From an uncultured Actinomycetota bacterium (GTDB lineage: Bacteria > Actinomycetota > Acidimicrobiia > Spongiisociales > UBA4744): a DNA stretch of 64,000 nt. The first letter of the stretch is position 1. Each line of letters starts with the position of its first letter. The stretch spans positions 32,243 through 96,242 of the forward strand of contig CAVRAP010000019.1 of assembly GCA_963718995.1 (NCBI GenBank), written 5' to 3'. The notes below the pieces were generated by a model, which was not told the DNA's origin, did no database searches, and saw only the letters and a program-made list of their open reading frames with translations. The translations under genes and the position numbers were made by a program. Positions 13,151 to 46,064 of the stretch are shown here, one piece after another.

Positions 13151-13798
13151 TCATGGGCAGTTGGCCGAGTTGGGTGTCCAGATGTTGCGGCCCGAAATCT
13201 CCGTGGTGCCGAGCCGGGCACTTATCCGGTCGTTGGTGTTCCCATCGACCCAGATCCGGACGGTGATGACCTTGCCCTGGGAGGGGAGTGCCGAGGCAAC
13301 TCCACCCTGATTAGTGAAGACGGGGACACCGGCCGTTCCCAGAGCGCGCCCGACCTTGGTGTTGTACACGTCGTCGACATAGGTTTCATTCTGGACTCCA
13401 CTGATGATGGTTCTCCAGGTGACCCCATCGTCCGCCGATCGCTGCAAATCTGTGGCAACCCCGTCGCCGTCCGTGTCGCGAAGGTCGTAGATGAGATCGT
13501 CGTATCCGACGGCACTGGTCGTTGCCGTGTAGCCGCGGGTCCGGAACTCCAGTCGATTCGATTCGAAACCGGGGAGCGGTTCGCACACTTTCTCGGCGCT
13601 GCGGAAGTCGCGGTCCATTTGTTGCAGGGCCAGGCGGACGTCGTCGTTGGAGCGCGCCGTACCTTCGAGGTCCCTGGTGGCCGACATCGTGGTCTGCAGG
13701 AGGGACAGGAAGACGGCCGCCACGATGGCCATCAGCATCATGGACACCATGAGCTCAGTCAGAGAAAGCCCTCGATCCGAGTGGTGCAGGCGTCTCAT
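13151..13798 (-). CDS. Prepilin-type minor pilin (PilW-like)
   Basis: Class III signal RG|LSLTELMV. Confidence 0.85.
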   Translation of the reverse strand: MRRLHHSDRGLSLTELMVSMMLMAIVAAVFLSLLQTTMSATRDLEGTARSNDDVRLALQQMDRDFRSAEKVCEPLPGFESNRLEFRTRGYTATTSAVGYDDLIYDLRDTDGDGVATDLQRSADDGVTWRTIISGVQNETYVDDVYNTKVGRALGTAGVPVFTNQGGVASALPSQGKVITVRIWVDGNTNDRISARLGTTEISGRNIWTPNSANCP

Positions 13799-15781
13799 CA
13801 GCTTGCATCCGGATCAATATAGAGAGCGGTGACTCCGACACCGCCCAGGTCGAAGGTGAGTACGACGTTGTACAGAGTGCCGTCCAGGAGGGGATCCGCG
13901 TCGATGACCGTGTCGACCACCCGGTAGGAGATCGTCCCGGTGACCATCCCCGTTGCCTGGACTCGAGATTCGGAAACATCCAGGTTGGTGTCTTCGGTGT
14001 ACGAGCGGCACGGCTTCCGTATCAGAATCGATCCCTGGACTTCGTAATGCAATTGCGGGTCACCGGTCGGGGTGATATCCCAGGTGCGAGGTCCTCCGGC
14101 GCCGTCGTCGACGGTGATCAGATCGGGTGACGGCAGAGCCGAGCAACTTCCGGTGGCGCCGAAACCCGAATACACCGTGACGTATTTGGTTGTACCGGGA
14201 TCCCAGAGCTTCACGATCACATTGCCCGTTGTGGACAGGTTGGGTGGGCGAGCGGCGTTCTCGCCTGCGGCCAGGTCGGTGCCGAAGACGCTAGGGGTCT
14301 CGATGATGACCCAGCCTTGGAAGGTGCTTTTTGCCAGCGGGCCAACCGAGTCCGGGAACAGGTACAGCGGTTCGGCCGCCCAGCTGTAGTCGACGCGGAC
14401 CTGCCGGTCGGTGGAAGGAGAAGGAGCGTCGTATCGGTCGGCGTTGGCCGAATAGGTCAGGGCGGGCCCAACCGAATCGTGTCCGCGGGCAAAGAAGGCG
14501 AACTCGTAGAACGGCGCATCCAGCGTGTCCCCCAGTTTGGCCTCGTACAGTGTCCGGACGGCCGCGGTCCGCATACTCTGTGAAGCCACCGTTGGTACGG
14601 TCGGCCGACTCCAGCCCGAACGAGGCATAGGGGAGACCGTCAACTTTCGGGTTCAACGAGGTCGGGTTGTATTCGGTCCACAGTTCTGCCCAGTACTTGG
14701 TTGGCTGCGCGGCCAGGAGATTGCTCAGGTCGGCCACGCTGAAGTCGTTGGGATGCGCCCCGCTGATCTGAAAGGCGGGTAGGAGGGATGTCAAGATGGC
14801 GTTGGAGTCATCGAGAGGAGCCACCGAGACCGCATCGTCATCGGCCGACCTCAGGACGTCGATCGGTTCGGGGCGGATCAGTACATCGTCGGCGGTGTCG
14901 AACAAACCGTCCGGGCCCGCATATTTGGCATCTCCCGATGTGGCTGAACTGCGTGCGATCTCGGAGGAGACGTAGTCGCTGGTGGCCGAAACGAAACCGT
15001 CGGAGAAGACGAGATTCGCCTGGAACAGGTCCCGTGGAGCGAGAACCCAGGCGCGGGTGCCGCGCACGGTGGTGAGCAGCGGATTGCCGACCCCGTCCGT
15101 GAATACCGGCGAGGGCTTGCCGTCGCCGGTCACGGTCAGATAGCCACCGTCCAGGGTCACTTCACCATGGATGAGGGGCTGGGATGGCTCGGTGAATGGG
15201 GAGACCAGCGTTGAGAGGCGCACCTCCCGCGGGAACCCGCCGGGAGGAGTCCAGGCGACGACCGCGGTGATGCGACGGTACTTCTCGGTGGCCGGGTCGA
15301 GCGGATCTGTTCGCACCGACGTGACGAAAAGGTACCGATCAAATGGTGTGTTGTCGCGTTCCTGCTGGTCGTGAAACGACAGGAAGGGGTCGAAGGTCGC
15401 CCCGTTGACGAAGACGAGCTCCTCTCCGCCGAAATCCCAGTTGCCGGATAACGGGTTGAGGGTGAGGTCCGTCCCGAAGACTCCGGTGGTCGGGTCGCTG
15501 AAGGTCGTGCACCCTACCTCGGTGGGGCACGTGGTTCCGTTGGCCAGCGATGTCAGACCCATGTGATTCCACTCGAGTGATCGAGAGCGCTCGAGCAACT
15601 CCGAGGCAAAGGCGGTTGCTGCCGCCTGCCGCTTCGTTTCGACGATGACTCGCGTGCCCGTGTCCATCGTTCGAAGCAGCACAACCACCAGGGCGAACAC
15701 GATGGTGAGGGCCACGACGGACTCGACGATCGTAAAGCCTGACTGATCCCTCAGGCGCGCCGTATTTTTGCTCCCAATCAT
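13798..15781 (-). CDS. Large prepilin-type protein (PilV-like); apparent indel near 14570
   Basis: QSG|FTIVESVVAL; ORFs 14291..15781 and 13798..14643 join in a shifted frame. Confidence 0.75.
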
Positions 15782-28068: not shown

Positions 28069-29448
28069 TCACGGGCCCGGTAGCACATCCACGATCACGT
28101 CCTGGTTGGCCGCGATCTCCTCAGGAAGTACTTTGTCGGCCGTCAGAAACAGCGAGGCGTTGCCGTGACAGGAGTCACACGACGCGTTCTGCGGGGTGTT
28201 CTTCTGGATGTTGTGGGGCGTGGCAGGCGCAAACGTCGGCCGGGCATCGAACTCAGGCAGCAGATTCGTCCCGTAGAACGAGAAGCTTTCCGGATCGATC
28301 GGCACATGGCGCACCACCGTGTAGCTCCAGGGCCGTTGCTCGGTTTGCTCGACGTTCTTGCCGATATAGAACGCCATCTGCGAAGGTTCGATCTTGTAGT
28401 AGGGCGTCCCTTCGTCCGATGTCTGCACGTGGCAGCTGTAGCAGTTCTTGTAGTCAACCGAGTGGCAGACCTGACACGACAGGTTCTCCGAGTGGAGCGA
28501 GTGCTGCTGGTTACCGTCGGCGCCGCCTTCGACGTCGGGGTGGCAGTCGATGCACTCCACGGCCGTTTCGTCGTAGCGGTGCGTCTGGGCCGGTCCCTCA
28601 CCGTGCATTTCCGCGTCACCATGACAGTCGAAACAAGCCATGCCGCCGGGGTTGAAATGAACGTCGGCCGGGTACATGCCACCGTCTGCTGTCACATTCT
28701 TCCCCTTGTACTCGTCGTTGACCCGGCTGCCGTGACAGCCCGTGCAGGTCAGGTTCATCGGCGGCGGGTTCTTGAACGAGTGTCCGTCGAGCAATCCACC
28801 ACCGGCACTGGTCGGCCGGCTCACATGGCATTGTCCACACGACGTGTGGCAGTCGGCGCAATGATTCTCGAAGGCCAACTCCAACCCGGGAGAGAGCTCC
28901 TCGCTGCCGGTCCTTTCGGCAAATACGGTCATGTAACCGTCGAGCGTCGAGTGCAAACTCATTGCATTGGTCGTGCTGATGTCGTTGTGGCAGCTCGAAC
29001 ATGTCTCGATCGCGTCCGGATCGCGCACCATGCCGGTGTGGGCCGCTTCTATCCCATTGGCCTGGCCGTCGCCGCCGTGGCAGGCAATGCAGCCGAGTGC
29101 CCCGTGGGTTGTTTCAAAGAACTCGTCGTCGCTGACAAAGACCTGTTCCCATGCCTCTAACTGAGGCACTGAGCCTCCTCAGCCTTCACCTTCGCTGAGG
29201 GTTTCGGTGGCAATAGGTTCGACGGCCATGGCCTGCAACGTGGCCTGGTCCGTGTGACAGGCCACACAACTGGCATCCGCGGCTGCGGATGGGTCGGTGG
29301 TGGTCGTCGTCGCGACCACCGTGGTCGTGGTTGTCTGCGGCACGGTCGTCTCGCTCGACGTCGTCGTGTCATCGGCACCACTGGTGCATCCGACCGCCAG
29401 GAGGGCGAAAAGCGCACTACCGATCAGCAATTGGATCGTCTTCTTCAT
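28069..29448 (-). CDS. Multiheme (11 CxxCH) cytochrome c lipoprotein, probable selenoprotein (UGA at 29181-29179 read as Sec), 459 aa
   Basis: ORFs 29179..29448 and 28069..29169 are in the same frame: LSEGEG-U-GGSVPQLEAWE; lipobox AVGC; one heme motif before the UGA and ten after. Confidence 0.85.
29151..29169 (-). promoter_or_regulatory. Candidate bacterial SECIS hairpin
   Basis: Minus strand TGCCTC-AGTTA-GAGGCA, starting 11 nt after the UGA; loop G at +18. Confidence 0.6.
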
Positions 29449-29505: not shown

Positions 29506-30583
29506 TTATCCGGTGACGGTCGGGTAGTCGGGTGCCGTCGTGAACGGGGTGGTGCCGACCACGTCGGGGTCGTCGCTCCATCCCATCATCCCGAACTTCA
29601 TGTTGATGACGTCGTAGCCGAGCAGCTTCAGCGCCGTGGCGGCCGCCTGGCCGGTGTGGCCGGTGTAGCAGTACACCATGATCGGCTGATCGGTGGGCAG
29701 CATCGCCATATTGGCCGGGTCGGCGACGGCCTTCCAGCCGATGTTGATGGCACCCTCGACATGCCCGAGGGCATACACATCAGGCAGCCCGGACGCTCAC
29801 GACGAAGTAATCGTTGGAATCGTCACCGTCGGCCATGTTGTCGAACAGTTCCGACGCGCCCGTAACCGGCGTCCAGTCGGCCAGCATGGCCCGGGCCGCG
29901 GCAAGAGCGATGTCCGAAGCCTCGGTCTCCCCGGTAGCCAGCACCGGCAAGTCGTAGGTTTCGGTGGCAACGGTTGCCTCGGTGACGGTCGGATAGCCCG
30001 GCGAAGTCGTGAATGGGGTCGTCGCAACGACGTCGAGGTCGTTGGTCCAGCCCATCATTCCGAACTTCAGGTTGCTGACGTCATAGCCGAGGACCTTGAG
30101 CAGCGTTGCCGCCACCTGGCCGGTGTGGCCCGTGTAGCAATAGACGACGATCGGCTGATCGGTCGGCAGCATGGCCAGGCTGGCCTCGTCGACGATGCTC
30201 TTCCAGGGGATGTTGATGGCCCCTTCGATATGACCGAGGGCGTAGTGCTCAGGAGCCCGAACACTGACGATGAACGGGTCGTTCGACTCGTCACCGTCGG
30301 TCAGGTTCTCGTACAGGTCATTTGCCGAGATAACCGGTGTCCACTCGGCGAACTGCGCAGTGATCTGCCCGGCCAGCACCAACTCCTCGTCGACCATGAC
30401 GGCGGTGGTGGTCGTGGCTTCGGCCGTTGTGGTGGTGGCTTCGGTTGTGGTGGTGGCTTCGGTTGTGGCCACCGCAGTCGTGGTGGTCTCTTCAGCCGCG
30501 TCGTCGGCACAGCCGGCGAGCACGATCATGCTGAATACGGTCAGGACCGCCAGCAGTTTGAAGAACTTGGTTCTCCGGTACAT
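29506..30583 (-). CDS. Tandem two-domain rhodanese lipoprotein; apparent 1-nt insertion near 29785
   Basis: Lipobox LAGC, Thr-rich linker, two repeats of SVRA...YALGH.EGAINI and active-site CYTGHTG. Confidence 0.85.
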
Positions 30584-30914: not shown

Positions 30915-32079
30915 CTAGCTCCAATCGCAGGCCATCAAACGCAGCATGGCCGTGGTCCCCGCCACGATGCCCGTTTCGATGGCAGCTTCGTCGATGTCGA
31001 ACCAGGCGGAGTGCAGGTCGGTTTTACGGTCGGGTAGTTGCGTGCCGAGCCGGAAGAGGGCGCCCGGGATTTCCTGGAGGAAGTAGGAGAAGTCCTCGGC
31101 TCCGAGGCTGGCGTGCGTCAACGCTACGGCGTGGGTTCCCAGCACGCTTGACACTGCATACTCCACTTCGGCGACCACGAACTGGTCGTTGATCACCGGG
31201 GGGATCCCGATTTCGTAATTGATCGTGGCGGTCGCTCCGAGCGGCGCGACAATCTCATGGACGAGCCTTTCGATGAGTTTGGGCATCTGTTCCCAGGTGT
31301 CGTGGTCGAGCGACCTGCAGGTTCCACTCAACTCGACCGAGGCGGGGATCACGTTGCCGGCGATGCCGCCCTGCACACGCCCGAAGACCAGCGAGAGCGG
31401 CATGCGGGCGTCGACGAGACGGTCCAGGAAGGCCGGGAGCTGGGTGATGACCTGGCCGGCGGCGAAGATCGTGTCGACCGAGTCATGCGGCCGGGCCGTA
31501 TGGCCACCGGGGCCGTCGACCGTGATGAGGAACCTATCCGATGAGCTGGTGATCGCGCCGGTCTTGAACCCGATCTGGCCGGGGGGGAGCGTTGGATCAA
31601 CATGGAAGGCGATGATCGCTTGCAACCCCGTCGATGGCGCCCTCGCGCAACAAGTCGTCGGCTCCGCCGGGGAAGAGCTCCTCGGCCGGCTGGAAGAGGA
31701 ATCTCACACGACCGGGGAGCGGGCCCAGCTCCTTGAGGGCCAGGGCGATGCCGACGGCAATAGCGGTATGGGCATCATGCCCACACGCATGCATGAGGCC
31801 GGGGAGTTCTGAAGCGAAGGGGAGGCCGGTTTGCTCATGAATCGGAAGTGCGTCCAGGTCTGCGCGAAACCCCACCAGGGAACCATGCTCCCCAAGCTCG
31901 GCGATCAGGCCGGTGTCGGCCGTCCTGACCTGGCTCGTGATACCGGCCCCGGCCAGCGCCCGGACCACCAGTTGGGTGGTCGCGAATTCCTGGCGTCCGA
32001 GTTCCGGGCGGCGGTGGATCGCCCGGCGCAACTCCACGGCGCGGGGTGCCACCCGCGTCCGCAATGGCTCGAACGTCAT
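30915..32079 (-). CDS. M20 amidohydrolase; apparent indel near 31627
   Basis: HRRPELG..E, RADLDALP, MHACGHDAH, FQPAEE, GGHTARPH, AEDFS. Confidence 0.88.
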
Positions 32080-45017: not shown

Positions 45018-46064
45018 ATGGTGGCGGTGAAACTGACCGAGTTTTCGCACGGCAGCGGTTGAGCTTGCAAGCTCGGCCCTGACGAGCTGGCGCAGGTCTT
45101 GCGCCCCTTGCACAACCATCCAACCACGGTCCACCCCGACCTGGTCGTCGGCCTCAATACCGGCGACGACGCCGGGGTCCTGCGCTTGCCCGACGGACGT
45201 CTCATGGTGCAGACGGTGGACTACTTCACTCCTGTGGTCGACGATCCCAACGATTGGGGACGGATCGCTGCGGCCAATGCACTTTCGGATATCTACGCCA
45301 TGGGCGCCACCCCGAGCACCGCTTTGCAGCTCATCGGCTGGCCGCGCGACAAGCTCTCCTTCGAGCTACTCGGCGAGGTGATCGTGGGCGGGATCGGCAC
45401 ATTGGAAGAGGCCGGCTGTCTGTTGATCGGCGGTCACTCGATCGACGCTCCCGAACCGACGTACGGGTTTGCCGTCACCGGGTTCGTCGACCCGGACCAA
45501 CTCACGTCCAACGGTGGAGCCCGTCCCGGCGATCGGCTGGTCCTCACCAAACCGATCGGGACGGGCATCATCTCAACGGCGGTCAAGAACGGCCGCGCCG
45601 ATCCGGCGGTCATCGCCGAGGCCATCGAGGTGATGGCGGAACTCAACGCCGGTGCGGCTCGCGCCATGGCCGCCGTCGGCGTTCATGCGGCGACCGATGT
45701 GACCGGCTTCGGTCTCCTCGGCCACCTGGGGGAGATGCTGATGGCGAGTGGGGTGGCCGCGGTCGTCGAGCACCATGCCGTGCCGCTCATCGAAGGTACA
45801 CGGGAACTGGCCGAGGCCGGTGTCGTGCCAGGAGGGACGGGCCGAAACCTGATTGCGGCTGAGCGGTTCACCGACTTCGGCGGACTCGATGCTGCCGATC
45901 GGCTCATCCTGGCCGACGCCCAGACGAGTGGCGGCTTGCTGATTGCGGTTGCCGCCGCCAAGGCTCTCGAACTGACTGAAGCACTCGCGGCTGAGCACAC
46001 CCGCGCCGCGGCCATCGTTGGTGAGATCGTCGAGGATCGACCCGGCACTATCGACGTCCGCTAG
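45018..46064 (+). CDS. selD: Selenophosphate synthetase, selenocysteine-containing (UGA at 45060-45062)
   Basis: AAGGAGG RBS; MVAVKLTEFSHGSG-U-ACKLGP in frame with ORF 45099; DDAGV, QTVDYFTP, AANALSDIYAMG, DAQTSGGLL. Confidence 0.95.

Follow-up and report, generated by a model that had tools for sequence, protein, structure and literature searches.

A conserved in-frame UGA joins two reading frames into a putative selenocysteine-containing 11-heme lipoprotein cytochrome with a rhodanese partner gene

Two adjoining open reading frames (ORFs) of 89 and 366 aa, lying on the minus strand of the 64,000-nt stretch of DNA analyzed here (the window), are one complete gene (28069..29448) encoding an exported 11-heme lipoprotein cytochrome c. 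Selenium insertion at the UGA of its codon 90 is inferred, as neither selenium in the protein nor read-through has been observed directly, and is regarded as very probable. The findings as a whole are best explained by an 11-heme lipoprotein with a recoded UGA that takes part in rhodanese-linked redox chemistry of sulfur or another chalcogen; to this explanation, in which the function is inferred, we assign a probability of about 0.85.

Translation of the minus strand revealed an 89-codon frame from ATG 29448 that carries an N-terminus of the form MKK..LLAVGC and the heme-binding motif C62VACH66, and that stops at TGA 29181-29179. Past this TGA the same frame continues unbroken (GGA GGC TCA GTG CCT..) into the 366-aa ORF (29169..28072; ten CxxCH motifs), which ends at TGA 28071-28069. 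The read-through product thus reads ..LSEGEG-U-GGSVPQLEAWEQV.., with U90 in a protein of 459 aa. The segment at 29386..29448 (minus strand) encodes a signal peptide with what we take to be a lipobox (..LLAVG-C21), assigned by pattern without a predictor, followed by a Thr-rich linker; signal and lipobox N-termini were also found in most full-length read-through frames of homologous loci, which likewise carry the cytochrome gene as one single frame. Heme-binding motif 1 (C62-V-A-C-H66; 29251..29265, minus strand) is the sole heme motif 5' of the selenocysteine (Sec), and its C4, C7 and H8 were invariant in the junction alignment A3 (n=78 sequences). The in-frame UGA (29179..29181, minus strand), identified as U90 by conservation of TGA or Cys codons, sits within GEG-U-GG and is followed by a 10-heme core (residues 95-459; 28072..29166, minus strand) with ten invariant CxxCH columns, which resembles MtrC/MtrF domain II/IV and lacks its own signal peptide. 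The preliminary description of this locus, made from the sequence alone, had reported the same-frame continuation, the missing signal peptide of the downstream ORF and the location of Sec in a Gly-rich linker (EGEG-U-GGSVP) between heme 1 and the 10-heme core; the observation is confirmed.

The junction was then compared across 79 rows, i.e., the window plus the 78 loci, out of 80 fetched, that contained the motif. TGA occupied the site in 78 of the 79 rows, the remaining one being TGG in a close relative (L077), and the residues on both sides of the TGA were conserved (LSEGEG-U-GG..PPLEAWEKV). In a second sample, consisting of 301 evenly sampled genomes of another class, TGA was present in 64 of 70 match rows. 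Such conservation is far above chance. Moreover, the Gly codon after the TGA occurred as GGA, GGC, GGG and GGT while the residue stayed Gly; with the third base free and the amino acid kept, the codon after the TGA must be translated. The statement in the preliminary description that this break is not an indel holds, since the stop is of the substitution type, keeps the frame and is common to 78/79 assemblies. Among public sequencing runs, no RNA run was listed as holding the stretch, and the DNA runs holding it share at most 0.13 of sampled words; contigs from other public runs displayed no difference over 29179-29181 among the matches listed, which is not a firm result.

At the protein level, a sister clade carries Cys at the corresponding position: of 80 metagenome loci the motif was found in 77, and all 77 had TGC or TGT at the Sec site. 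These Cys forms are full-length single ORFs similar to the Sec form over the full length. When 1.84 billion representatives were searched with a profile, 55 matches spanned the site. Cys was present in 27 of them; the remaining 28 had W (6), Y (5), R (3), A (3), L (3) or further residues, although a few of these 28 are alignment shifts or fall in a second domain. Database forms with Leu (P0089) and Trp (P0108) at the site were identified, and in one genome Sec forms are accompanied by a paralogue that lacks both Sec and Cys there; a chalcogen residue is not universal at this site. When full-length forms without Sec were sought by a word search restricted to the region, nothing but seven close truncated forms came up. 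The family has Sec forms and invariant-Cys forms, and we propose that this residue is its functional chalcogen.

In bacteria, a SECIS element is a stem-loop located shortly past the UGA, with a G- or U-bearing apical loop. The minimum-free-energy fold contains such a hairpin (GUGCCUC-AGUUA-GAGGCAU; 29151..29169, minus strand), which has a 5-bp core (29153-29157 with 29163-29167) and 7 bp in total, one of them G-U. It begins 9 nt past the last base of the UGA when the outer G-U is counted (alignment columns 19:37), while the conserved stem begins 10-11 nt past it (columns 20-21), and the loop across the rows is (C/A)GUU(G/A). Stem cells were paired in 89.9% of cases, as compared to 43-55% in slid controls. 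Two-sided changes were observed in three pairs (GC to CG in 12 rows and GC to AU in three; CG to GC in one; CG to AU in two), pair 21:35 alone being GC in 61, CG in 12, AU in three and GU in two. The covariation score of the hairpin was reached by none of 500 shuffles, and RNAalifold recovered the core unaided. In further support of the hairpin, synonymous sites within it were invariant, a Pro codon of the stem being CCU in 79/79 rows. On the other hand, the hairpin overlaps a peptide that is itself conserved (V/L-P-P-L-E-A-W), and the protein accounts for some of the conservation. A scan of 29050-29250 against Rfam at E<=10 found no SECIS family, only four chance-level matches to lncRNA and snRNA families. 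The predicted hairpin meets the spacing and loop expected of a bacterial SECIS; the SECIS-like hairpin of the preliminary description is present, conserved and covarying, while its stem is 7 bp including the G-U rather than the 6 bp described.

The genome also encodes the machinery for Sec insertion: a tRNA-Sec (76.9 bits, anticodon tca), selA (452.5 bits), selB (329.5 bits) and, within the window, selD (45018..46064, plus strand; TIGR00476, 393.9 bits), which itself has an in-frame UGA at 45060-45062 (..SHGSG-U-ACK..) and belongs to the Sec trait needed by the cytochrome. Of 49 other genomes with the cytochrome gene, 48 had selA above its cut-off. The background in the window's class was 101/151 genomes; only three of these 151 hold the cytochrome gene, and all three have selA. 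Hence both kinds of support that the preliminary description had named for a Sec codon, conservation of TGA or Cys at the site and co-occurrence with Sec genes, were obtained.

Three readings without selenium have to be weighed against these data. That the stop is an assembly artefact or a sign of gene decay might be suspected from other frame breaks in the window, as the adjoining rhodanese gene has a 1-nt break and the M20 peptidase gene is found as two overlapping ORFs; yet a frame-keeping stop recurring in nearly all independent assemblies of both samples refutes this reading, and virtually no weight is left to it. Scarcely more can be granted to the possibility of two genes, in which the TGA would be the true stop of a monoheme lipoprotein and the 366-aa cytochrome would start at GTG 29169 with GGAGG as its ribosome-binding site (RBS). 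In the window GGAGG does sit 5 nt 5' of the GTG, and gene callers make the same split in 114 of the 120 homologues listed. However, GGAGG is found in just 15/79 rows, and the supposed start codon is GTG in 31, TTG in 21, CTG in 12, GTC in 12 and TTA, GTA and GCA in one each, so that 27/79 rows have no ATG, GTG or TTG there; the preliminary description had named an RBS here as a refutation of its proposal, and it is the RBS reading that fails. Moreover, the G-G-S/A/E between the TGA and the supposed start is kept as amino acids with synonymous variation, the full-length Cys forms are single ORFs, and a separate cytochrome would lack a signal peptide, whereas c-type heme attachment takes place outside the cytoplasm.

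Read-through without Sec, by hairpin-aided insertion of a near-cognate Trp, Cys or Arg at a position where the residue is unimportant, is harder to dismiss but still very unlikely. It draws support from the homologues with Trp, Leu, Arg and others at the site, which indicate that the fold tolerates them, and from TGG and CGA being one step from TGA. What speaks against it is the invariant Cys of the sister clade, a classical Sec/Cys signature, together with the presence of selA in nearly all holder genomes and a hairpin whose spacing and loop fit bacterial SECIS elements. In addition, the same gene ends normally in TGA, and there is no known reason why a stop would be retained in hundreds of lineages if any residue served equally well. 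Recoding of the UGA as Sec is thus the reading that we carry forward.

Directly upstream of the cytochrome gene lies a gene for a tandem-rhodanese lipoprotein (29506..30583, minus strand), with PF00581 matched in both pieces (62.6 and 42.9 bits). Each rhodanese domain has a CYTGHTG active-site loop, read here as a six-residue sulfurtransferase loop. This partner had escaped the preliminary description and is the best clue to function. In the window a 1-nt frame break near 29779-29781 divides the rhodanese gene into two pieces; three contigs from other runs had one gap each around 29780 among the matches listed, which is not firm. The M20 peptidase gene of the window likewise appears as overlapping ORFs. 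In the Sec clade, a rhodanese gene on the same strand adjoins the cytochrome gene in 62/78 loci (59 upstream, three downstream), and 12 of the 16 loci missing it extend less than 1500 nt upstream. Cys-clade loci carry it immediately downstream in 73 of 77 cases, the four misses being contigs of 1668-1961 nt. Thus the linkage outlasts a reversal of gene order, from upstream in the Sec clade to downstream in the Cys clade. Genes for NrfC-like and NrfD-like proteins were present in 22/78 and 18/78 Sec-clade loci respectively; an NrfCD-like neighbour is absent from the window.

In the read-through protein, Pfam PF22113 matched the 10-heme core at residues 120-281 (42.2 bits, cut-off 30), which is no more than a domain-level resemblance, and PF14522 and PF14537 were also matched. 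The best NCBIfam match, to ExtM from an operon for selenite/tellurite reduction, was weak, at 33.3 bits where the cut-off is 800, and the GSU2203 decaheme family NF041028 scored 16.8 bits against 325. A sequence search of the PDB gave no match at E<=1, a Foldseek fold search found none in a PDB copy to April 2026 that may miss the MccSep structure, and the ESM Atlas yielded only generic cytochrome clusters of 318-452 aa. An AlphaFold2 model from a 70-row alignment reached a mean pLDDT of 63.9 and a pTM of 0.57, with pLDDT below 50 for the Sec loop (residues 79-99); with the model so poor around Sec, its position relative to the hemes cannot be predicted, and the idea of the preliminary description that Sec acts as a mobile chalcogen carrier or heme ligand stays conjectural. 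Conservation of His and Cys outside the motifs was read from a mixed alignment, in which 11 non-motif histidines were conserved (nine invariant, two nearly so). As these equal the 11 hemes in number, there is no obvious heme without a distal His, although the argument is weak. No Cys outside the CxxCH motifs was conserved in the family alignments.

A mechanism consistent with these features can be envisaged. SelB and tRNA-Sec would recode the UGA of codon 90 under direction of the short downstream hairpin, and the resulting Sec would stand on a Gly-rich loop (SEGEG-U-GG) joining the one-heme N-terminal module to the 10-heme core. The tandem rhodanese may bind sulfur or deliver it to the cytochrome, where nucleophilic attack by the selenolate would yield a Se-S adduct; electrons arriving through the heme chain would then cleave the adduct. 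In many Anaerolineae loci these electrons would probably come from the neighbouring NrfC/NrfD-like quinol module. Sulfane sulfur, polysulfide or another chalcogen of this kind would be the substrate, and the reaction would take place outside the cytoplasmic membrane. That the substrate is sulfur or polysulfide and the direction reductive is inferred from gene neighbourhood and analogy only; it is the likeliest assignment but a tentative one, with slightly less than even odds of being right. The frame break in the window's own rhodanese gene and the missing NrfCD-like neighbour weigh against it.

A genuine selenoprotein could also have another job, which is unlikely but must be kept in view: Sec may serve heme 1 as an axial ligand or as a redox switch, the substrate may be selenite, tellurite, thiosulfate or tetrathionate, the enzyme may work oxidatively, with sulfide or thiosulfate oxidation supplying the heme chain, or it may mainly transfer electrons to extracellular minerals. 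The resemblance of the core to MtrC/MtrF pentaheme domains (PF22113), the weak match to ExtM and the lack of a conserved non-CxxCH Cys as a partner for Sec are all compatible with such roles, as is the selenite-dependent methyl viologen oxidation supported by MccSep (PMC13510729). On the other hand, the 11 conserved histidines for 11 hemes speak, if weakly, against a role of Sec at a heme, and the rhodanese linkage in both clades favours handling of sulfane sulfur over mineral reduction.

To our knowledge, experimental proof of Sec-dependent multiheme enzymes has existed only since 2026, with MccSep in Geobacter. The MccSep gene cluster includes ExtH, presumably a rhodanese-family protein as well. 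In PMC13510729, MccSep is described as a Sec-dependent multiheme polysulfide reductase, reported mainly in Desulfobacterota and Nitrospirota, whereas the present family is found in Chloroflexota and Acidimicrobiia. MccSep/ExtKL (GSU2937-2936 of G. sulfurreducens; NF040886) is likewise a c-type cytochrome with several hemes, periplasmic or extracytoplasmic (PMC13510729). Its gene carries one in-frame UGA with a SECIS-like hairpin just 3' of it and is split by annotation into two ORFs, and the family has both Sec-type and Cys-type members. However, no relationship to it was detected by sequence, it has five hemes instead of 11, its Sec (U325 in ..IPDG-U-PTPNR) lies close to the C-terminus rather than at residue 90 in GEG-U-GG, and it pairs Sec with a heme-ligating Cys239 for which no conserved non-CxxCH Cys is found here (PMC13510729). 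The GSU2204 family of CXXCH proteins (NF041027) and the tetrathionate-reductase-family octahemes (TIGR04315) are c-type heme proteins of which some members contain Sec, as stated in PMC13188914. None of NF040886, NF041027 and TIGR04315 was among the NCBIfam matches of the read-through protein at E<=1. The MtrC/MtrF/OmcA decahemes (PF22113) are, as here, lipoprotein cytochromes at the outer face of the cell envelope, but the present protein has an extra N-terminal one-heme Sec/Cys module and a rhodanese partner, and no MtrAB-type porin-cytochrome partners were seen in the loci examined. In Wolinella, polysulfide reductase PsrABC acts with the sulfur-transfer protein Sud. Many Anaerolineae loci follow the same module logic, with an NrfD-like quinol subunit in the membrane, an NrfC/PsrB-like FeS subunit, a sulfur carrier of the rhodanese type and a catalytic subunit; the last is a molybdopterin enzyme in PsrABC, while here it would be a Sec multiheme cytochrome.

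One further reading, which is speculative and less probable still than the alternative roles above, joins two proposals. Sec, on a flexible Gly-rich arm, would lie near heme 1, either as a selenolate axial ligand or swinging between a rhodanese persulfide and the 11-heme wire, for which no geometry is at hand; and the family would be independent of Geobacter MccSep, a second invention of heme-plus-selenium chalcogen reduction and an unlisted, widespread selenoenzyme class. If this were true, a possibly major and unrecognized route of sulfur and selenium cycling in sediments and soils would be implied. What can be stated with less reserve is that, besides MccSep and unrelated to it, another cytochrome scaffold that combines a Sec/Cys site with a partner rhodanese exists in other phyla.

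The text of a 2026 review (PMC13188914; supplements excluded) mentions cytochromes three times, always of other families, in the portion available, and PMC12013277, without its supplement, mentions neither cytochrome nor heme. No description of this cytochrome family as a selenoprotein was found in the literature, as far as the sources were available and with supplements (Data S1/S2 of PMC13510729) excluded. The family is thus an addition to the prokaryotic selenoproteome, being absent from the table of PMC13188914, so far as that source was available, and from NCBIfam release 20.

The preliminary description had anticipated that automated annotation would split the gene, and so it does: 114 of the 120 database homologues listed are forms of 326-375 aa cut after the UGA and starting ..PPLEAWE. 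Thousands of database entries appear as truncated "cytochromes" of 360-370 aa without signal peptide or under a misleading name, "thiosulfate/3-mercaptopyruvate sulfurtransferase"; reading the UGA as Sec restores the exported 11-heme lipoprotein to the annotation. If the protein reduces or oxidizes sulfur or selenium species, this bears on the cycling of these elements by abundant uncultured Anaerolineae. The gene is common: in the evenly sampled genomes of one class, it was present in 65 of 301.

The cytochrome gene on the reverse strand opens with an ORF that runs from ATG 29448 to TGA 29181-29179 and encodes MKKTIQLLIGSALFALLAVGC.., a Thr-rich linker and the motif C62VACH66, after which the same frame continues, free of stops, as GGA GGC TCA GTG CCT CAG.. 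to TGA 28071-28069. Translation through the first UGA gives a 459-aa protein (..ATETLSEGEG-U90-GGSVPQLEAWEQVF..) with 11 CxxCH motifs, one upstream and ten downstream of the UGA. Pfam multiheme domains were matched by PF22113 (MtrC/MtrF domain II/IV; 42.2 bits, cut-off 30), PF14522 and PF14537. An NCBIfam scan found no model near its cut-off (top, ExtM, 33.3 bits versus 800), PDB searches by sequence and by fold returned no relatives, and the structure model was too weak for use. Frame, motifs and hairpin, checked in the sequence, all agreed with the preliminary description, and its main interpretation, a single gene in which UGA is read as selenocysteine (Sec), is judged right, with no experimental evidence for selenium at residue 90.

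From a collection of 5.8 billion proteins, 8000 candidates were scored and 2043 matched the cytochrome. Among the 120 matches listed, 114 were 326-375 aa long and began with M/L-P-P-L-E-A-W-E, which is where the gene caller restarts past the UGA; annotation thus splits the gene, as had been predicted. The six longer forms comprised four with the same truncated start plus a C-terminal extension, and only two with the N-terminal module, carrying Leu (protein P0089) and Trp (P0108) at the site. Species-representative genomes (MAGs of Acidimicrobiia, Anaerolineae, Caldilineaceae, Thermoflexales and Dehalococcoidales) gave 375 relatives; DNA was taken for 80 of these, and the motif was located in 78. 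In the resulting 79 rows (window included) the site codon was TGA in 78 and TGG in one (locus L077); every upstream frame of the loci carried CxxCHT ~25 residues ahead of the site, and most full-length read-through frames opened with a signal peptide and lipobox. Moreover, among 301 evenly sampled genomes from the class of one Anaerolineae holder, the gene occurred in 65 genomes and the in-frame TGA in 64 of 70 match rows, the other six being three rows short of the site, one TGG, one Leu and one paralogue without Sec or Cys, where a TAG was a plain terminal stop. Judged from these sequences, the stop that interrupts the gene is a property of the entire family.

A profile of the 73-residue junction around the UGA, searched against 1.84 billion cluster representatives, gave 199 matches at E<=0.001, of which 150 were listed. 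Many short matches among these stopped exactly at profile position 32, being N-terminal pieces truncated by the UGA, while many others, beginning at positions 37-40, were C-terminal fragments. Of the listed domain matches, 55 came from uninterrupted proteins and spanned the site, and 27 of these had Cys there, within GGCGG (one or two of them second-domain matches); the other residues were W (6), Y (5), R, A and L (3 each), S and H (2 each) and P, M, V and K (once each), and about four more matches were, by eye, Trp forms one column off. Throughout their length the Cys forms were built alike, with a lipobox, CxxCHT and GGCGG ahead of the heme core. Of 80 metagenome loci from this sister clade, 77 yielded the motif, all with a Cys codon at the site (TGC 47, TGT 30). 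Both the conserved TGA and the Cys replacement that the preliminary description had named as support were therefore observed. A Sec clade alongside one with invariant Cys is the usual mark of functional selenocysteine, which remains a prediction here.

The preliminary description had itself raised a rival, namely that the GGAGG after the UGA serves as an RBS for a separate protein starting at GTG, and the window sequence taken singly does hold both elements. This restart was contradicted by codon variation across the 79 rows: GGAGG, the window's form of two Gly codons, occurred in only 15; the first codon after TGA was GGA, GGC, GGG or GGT, with Ala (GCN) in five; and the supposed start was GTG in 31, TTG in 21, CTG and GTC in 12 each, and TTA, GTA and GCA in one each. 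Amino acids were thus kept despite synonymous drift between "stop" and "start", which means that the stretch is protein-coding. The downstream part lacks a signal peptide of its own, as had been noted, and c-type heme attachment takes place extracytoplasmically. Furthermore TGA also ends the gene normally, so the organism does not generally read TGA as sense.

Read-through as Sec is also consistent with an RNA element. The SECIS-like hairpin described earlier (GUGCCUC-AGUUA-GAGGCAU, 29169-29151, reverse strand) was present in the MFE fold of 91 nt around the UGA. In a gap-free alignment of 54 nt (6 nt, TGA and 45 nt; 79 rows), 89.9% of cells in helix columns 19-26/30-37 were paired, versus 43-55% with the 3' partners slid by 1-3 columns; the covariation score was equalled by 0 of 500 shuffles, and RNAalifold found the 5-bp core unaided. 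Pairs 22:34, 23:33 and 24:32 were invariant, while 21:35 was GC in 61 rows, CG in 12, AU in 3, GU in 2 and other in 1; 25:31 was CG in 78 and GC in 1; and 26:30 was CG in 64, AU in 2 and other in 13. The hairpin falls within conserved peptide. Its stem Pro codon was CCU in 79/79 rows from phyla of differing GC content, and the GC->CG and GC->AU changes at 21:35 joined a silent third-base change (GUG, GUC, GUA) with an Ala to Gly or Val replacement in the codon on the pairing side; together these make a case for RNA-level selection beyond the protein. The conserved stem starts 10-11 nt past the UGA and its loop is (C/A)GUU(G/A), a spacing and G/U loop that we take to match bacterial SECIS elements (E. 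coli fdhF work, bSECISearch). An Rfam scan of the hairpin region matched no model.

The sel genes whose co-occurrence had been proposed as a check were found. The window's genome (2.66 Mb, 22 contigs, 90% complete) carries tRNA-Sec (76.9 bits; ARAGORN anticodon tca), selA (452.5 bits) adjoining selB (329.5 bits), and selD (~45018-46064, forward strand; 393.9 bits). selA was above cut-off in 48 of 49 other cytochrome-holding genomes; its background in the window's class was 101/151 genomes, only three of which held the cytochrome, all three with selA. This association fits expectation but discriminates little, since many genomes of these groups have the Sec trait. selD, 16 kb away from the cytochrome gene, encodes a selenoprotein too, with an in-frame UGA at 45060-45062 (..SHGSG-U-ACK..) and a predicted hairpin (loop GGUCU) ~27-30 nt after it, farther than in the cytochrome gene. 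At locus L001 (genome G000, contig C10, ~13785-15126), ARAGORN placed two tRNA-Sec genes 1.2 kb apart (1501-1593 and 2758-2844) with a membrane-protein ORF between them; the second matches the first near letter-for-letter in the 3' half only (anticodon arm to acceptor end) and resembles a second copy of the 3' part, of the sort that an element leaves on integrating into a tRNA gene.

Directly upstream of the cytochrome, on the same strand, lies a tandem-rhodanese lipoprotein gene (29506-30583) with a CYTGHTG loop in each domain. It is in two ORFs (29780-30583 and 29506-29778) with a 1-nt frame break near 29780: within 29775-29785 ..VSVRAA is followed by TGA, and the second domain resumes in the next frame (VYALGHVEG), which looks like one extra base. 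Three contigs from relatives spanning the break showed one gap each (gap position not given), and the break may reflect a mistake in assembly or genuine damage to the gene. In the Sec clade a same-strand tandem rhodanese was present in 62/78 loci (59 upstream, 3 downstream); 12 of the 16 misses had <1500 nt of upstream sequence, while L055, L057, L074 and L077 had enough, yet no rhodanese. In the Cys clade a two-domain rhodanese lipoprotein (~340 aa) lay directly downstream in 73/77 loci, the other four being contigs of 1668-1961 nt. Linkage kept through a reversal of gene order in distant clades is good evidence of shared function. Other neighbours were less constant: NrfC-like FeS genes (22/78) and NrfD-like membrane genes (18/78) in Sec-clade loci, mostly upstream of the rhodanese, with some Cys-clade loci having extra multiheme cytochromes and a sigma-54-type regulator. 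In the window, an M20-family peptidase/amidohydrolase gene (30915-32079, reverse strand) is split into overlapping ORFs (30915-31625 and 31597-32079), probably another frame break of the assembly.

In the available sources just one precedent has been characterised, MccSep/ExtKL of Geobacter. This periplasmic selenoprotein with five hemes is a polysulfide reductase whose Sec, beside a His/Cys heme, makes the nucleophilic attack (PMC13510729). By analogy the window cytochrome is inferred to work like MccSep. However, set against what is available of that account, it fails every MccSep membership feature examined: it has no NF040886 match and 11 hemes instead of five, its Sec sits close to the N-terminus within another motif, and its family has no conserved partner Cys. 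Two other cytochrome selenoprotein families appear in the accessible table of a May 2026 review (NF041027 and TIGR04315; PMC13188914), and neither matched the window cytochrome in the NCBIfam scan. The literature in the portions available, including the deep-Sep paper (PMC12013277), held no account of this family, an entry in a supplementary list not being excluded. The family would therefore represent a second, unrelated multiheme-cytochrome scaffold bearing catalytic Sec/Cys, the selenium itself still without experimental proof. Beyond the preliminary description, the analysis adds i) the scale of the family, ii) the Cys sister clade, iii) the covarying SECIS, iv) the conserved rhodanese partner and v) the distinction from MccSep.

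A possible scheme, to which we give slightly less than even odds (roughly 0.45) and which rests on analogy, is sulfur reduction in which the rhodanese would bind or deliver sulfane sulfur, U90 on its Gly-rich loop would attack that sulfur, and electrons from the heme chain would reduce the Se-S adduct. The protein may instead act on other chalcogens or run oxidatively, or its Sec may serve as a ligand or a switch. Heme ligation by Sec had been suggested earlier; the 11 conserved non-motif histidines of the family (nine invariant, two nearly so) equal the heme number, which speaks weakly against Sec as an obligatory axial ligand.

Some lineages have Trp, Leu or another residue in place of Sec/Cys, so the scaffold is able to do without the chalcogen, and such forms perhaps serve as plain electron carriers. 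Locus L209 (genome G036, contig C328) has neither Sec nor Cys at the site (..MEGTSELLSVEPW..) in a genome that also has Sec forms, and L181 reads GDG-L-GG there, which suggests sub-functionalised copies. Long C-terminal extensions, which hold extra CxxCH motifs together with a hydrophobic helix at the C-terminus, were seen in L054, L056, L065, P0039, P0094, P0104 and P0117; extended members reach ~766 aa, with a signal-like N-terminus lacking the lipobox Cys. The gene has a scattered occurrence within the class of the window (3/151 sampled genomes, versus 65/301 in the class of the Anaerolineae holder), and identity between phyla is 50-65%; both are compatible with lateral transfer into Acidimicrobiia, no tree having been built. 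One source labels many of these cytochromes (P0017, P0020, P0136, P0272 and others) 'thiosulfate/3-mercaptopyruvate sulfurtransferase' in the absence of a rhodanese domain, a label probably transferred from the adjacent gene or a fused form.
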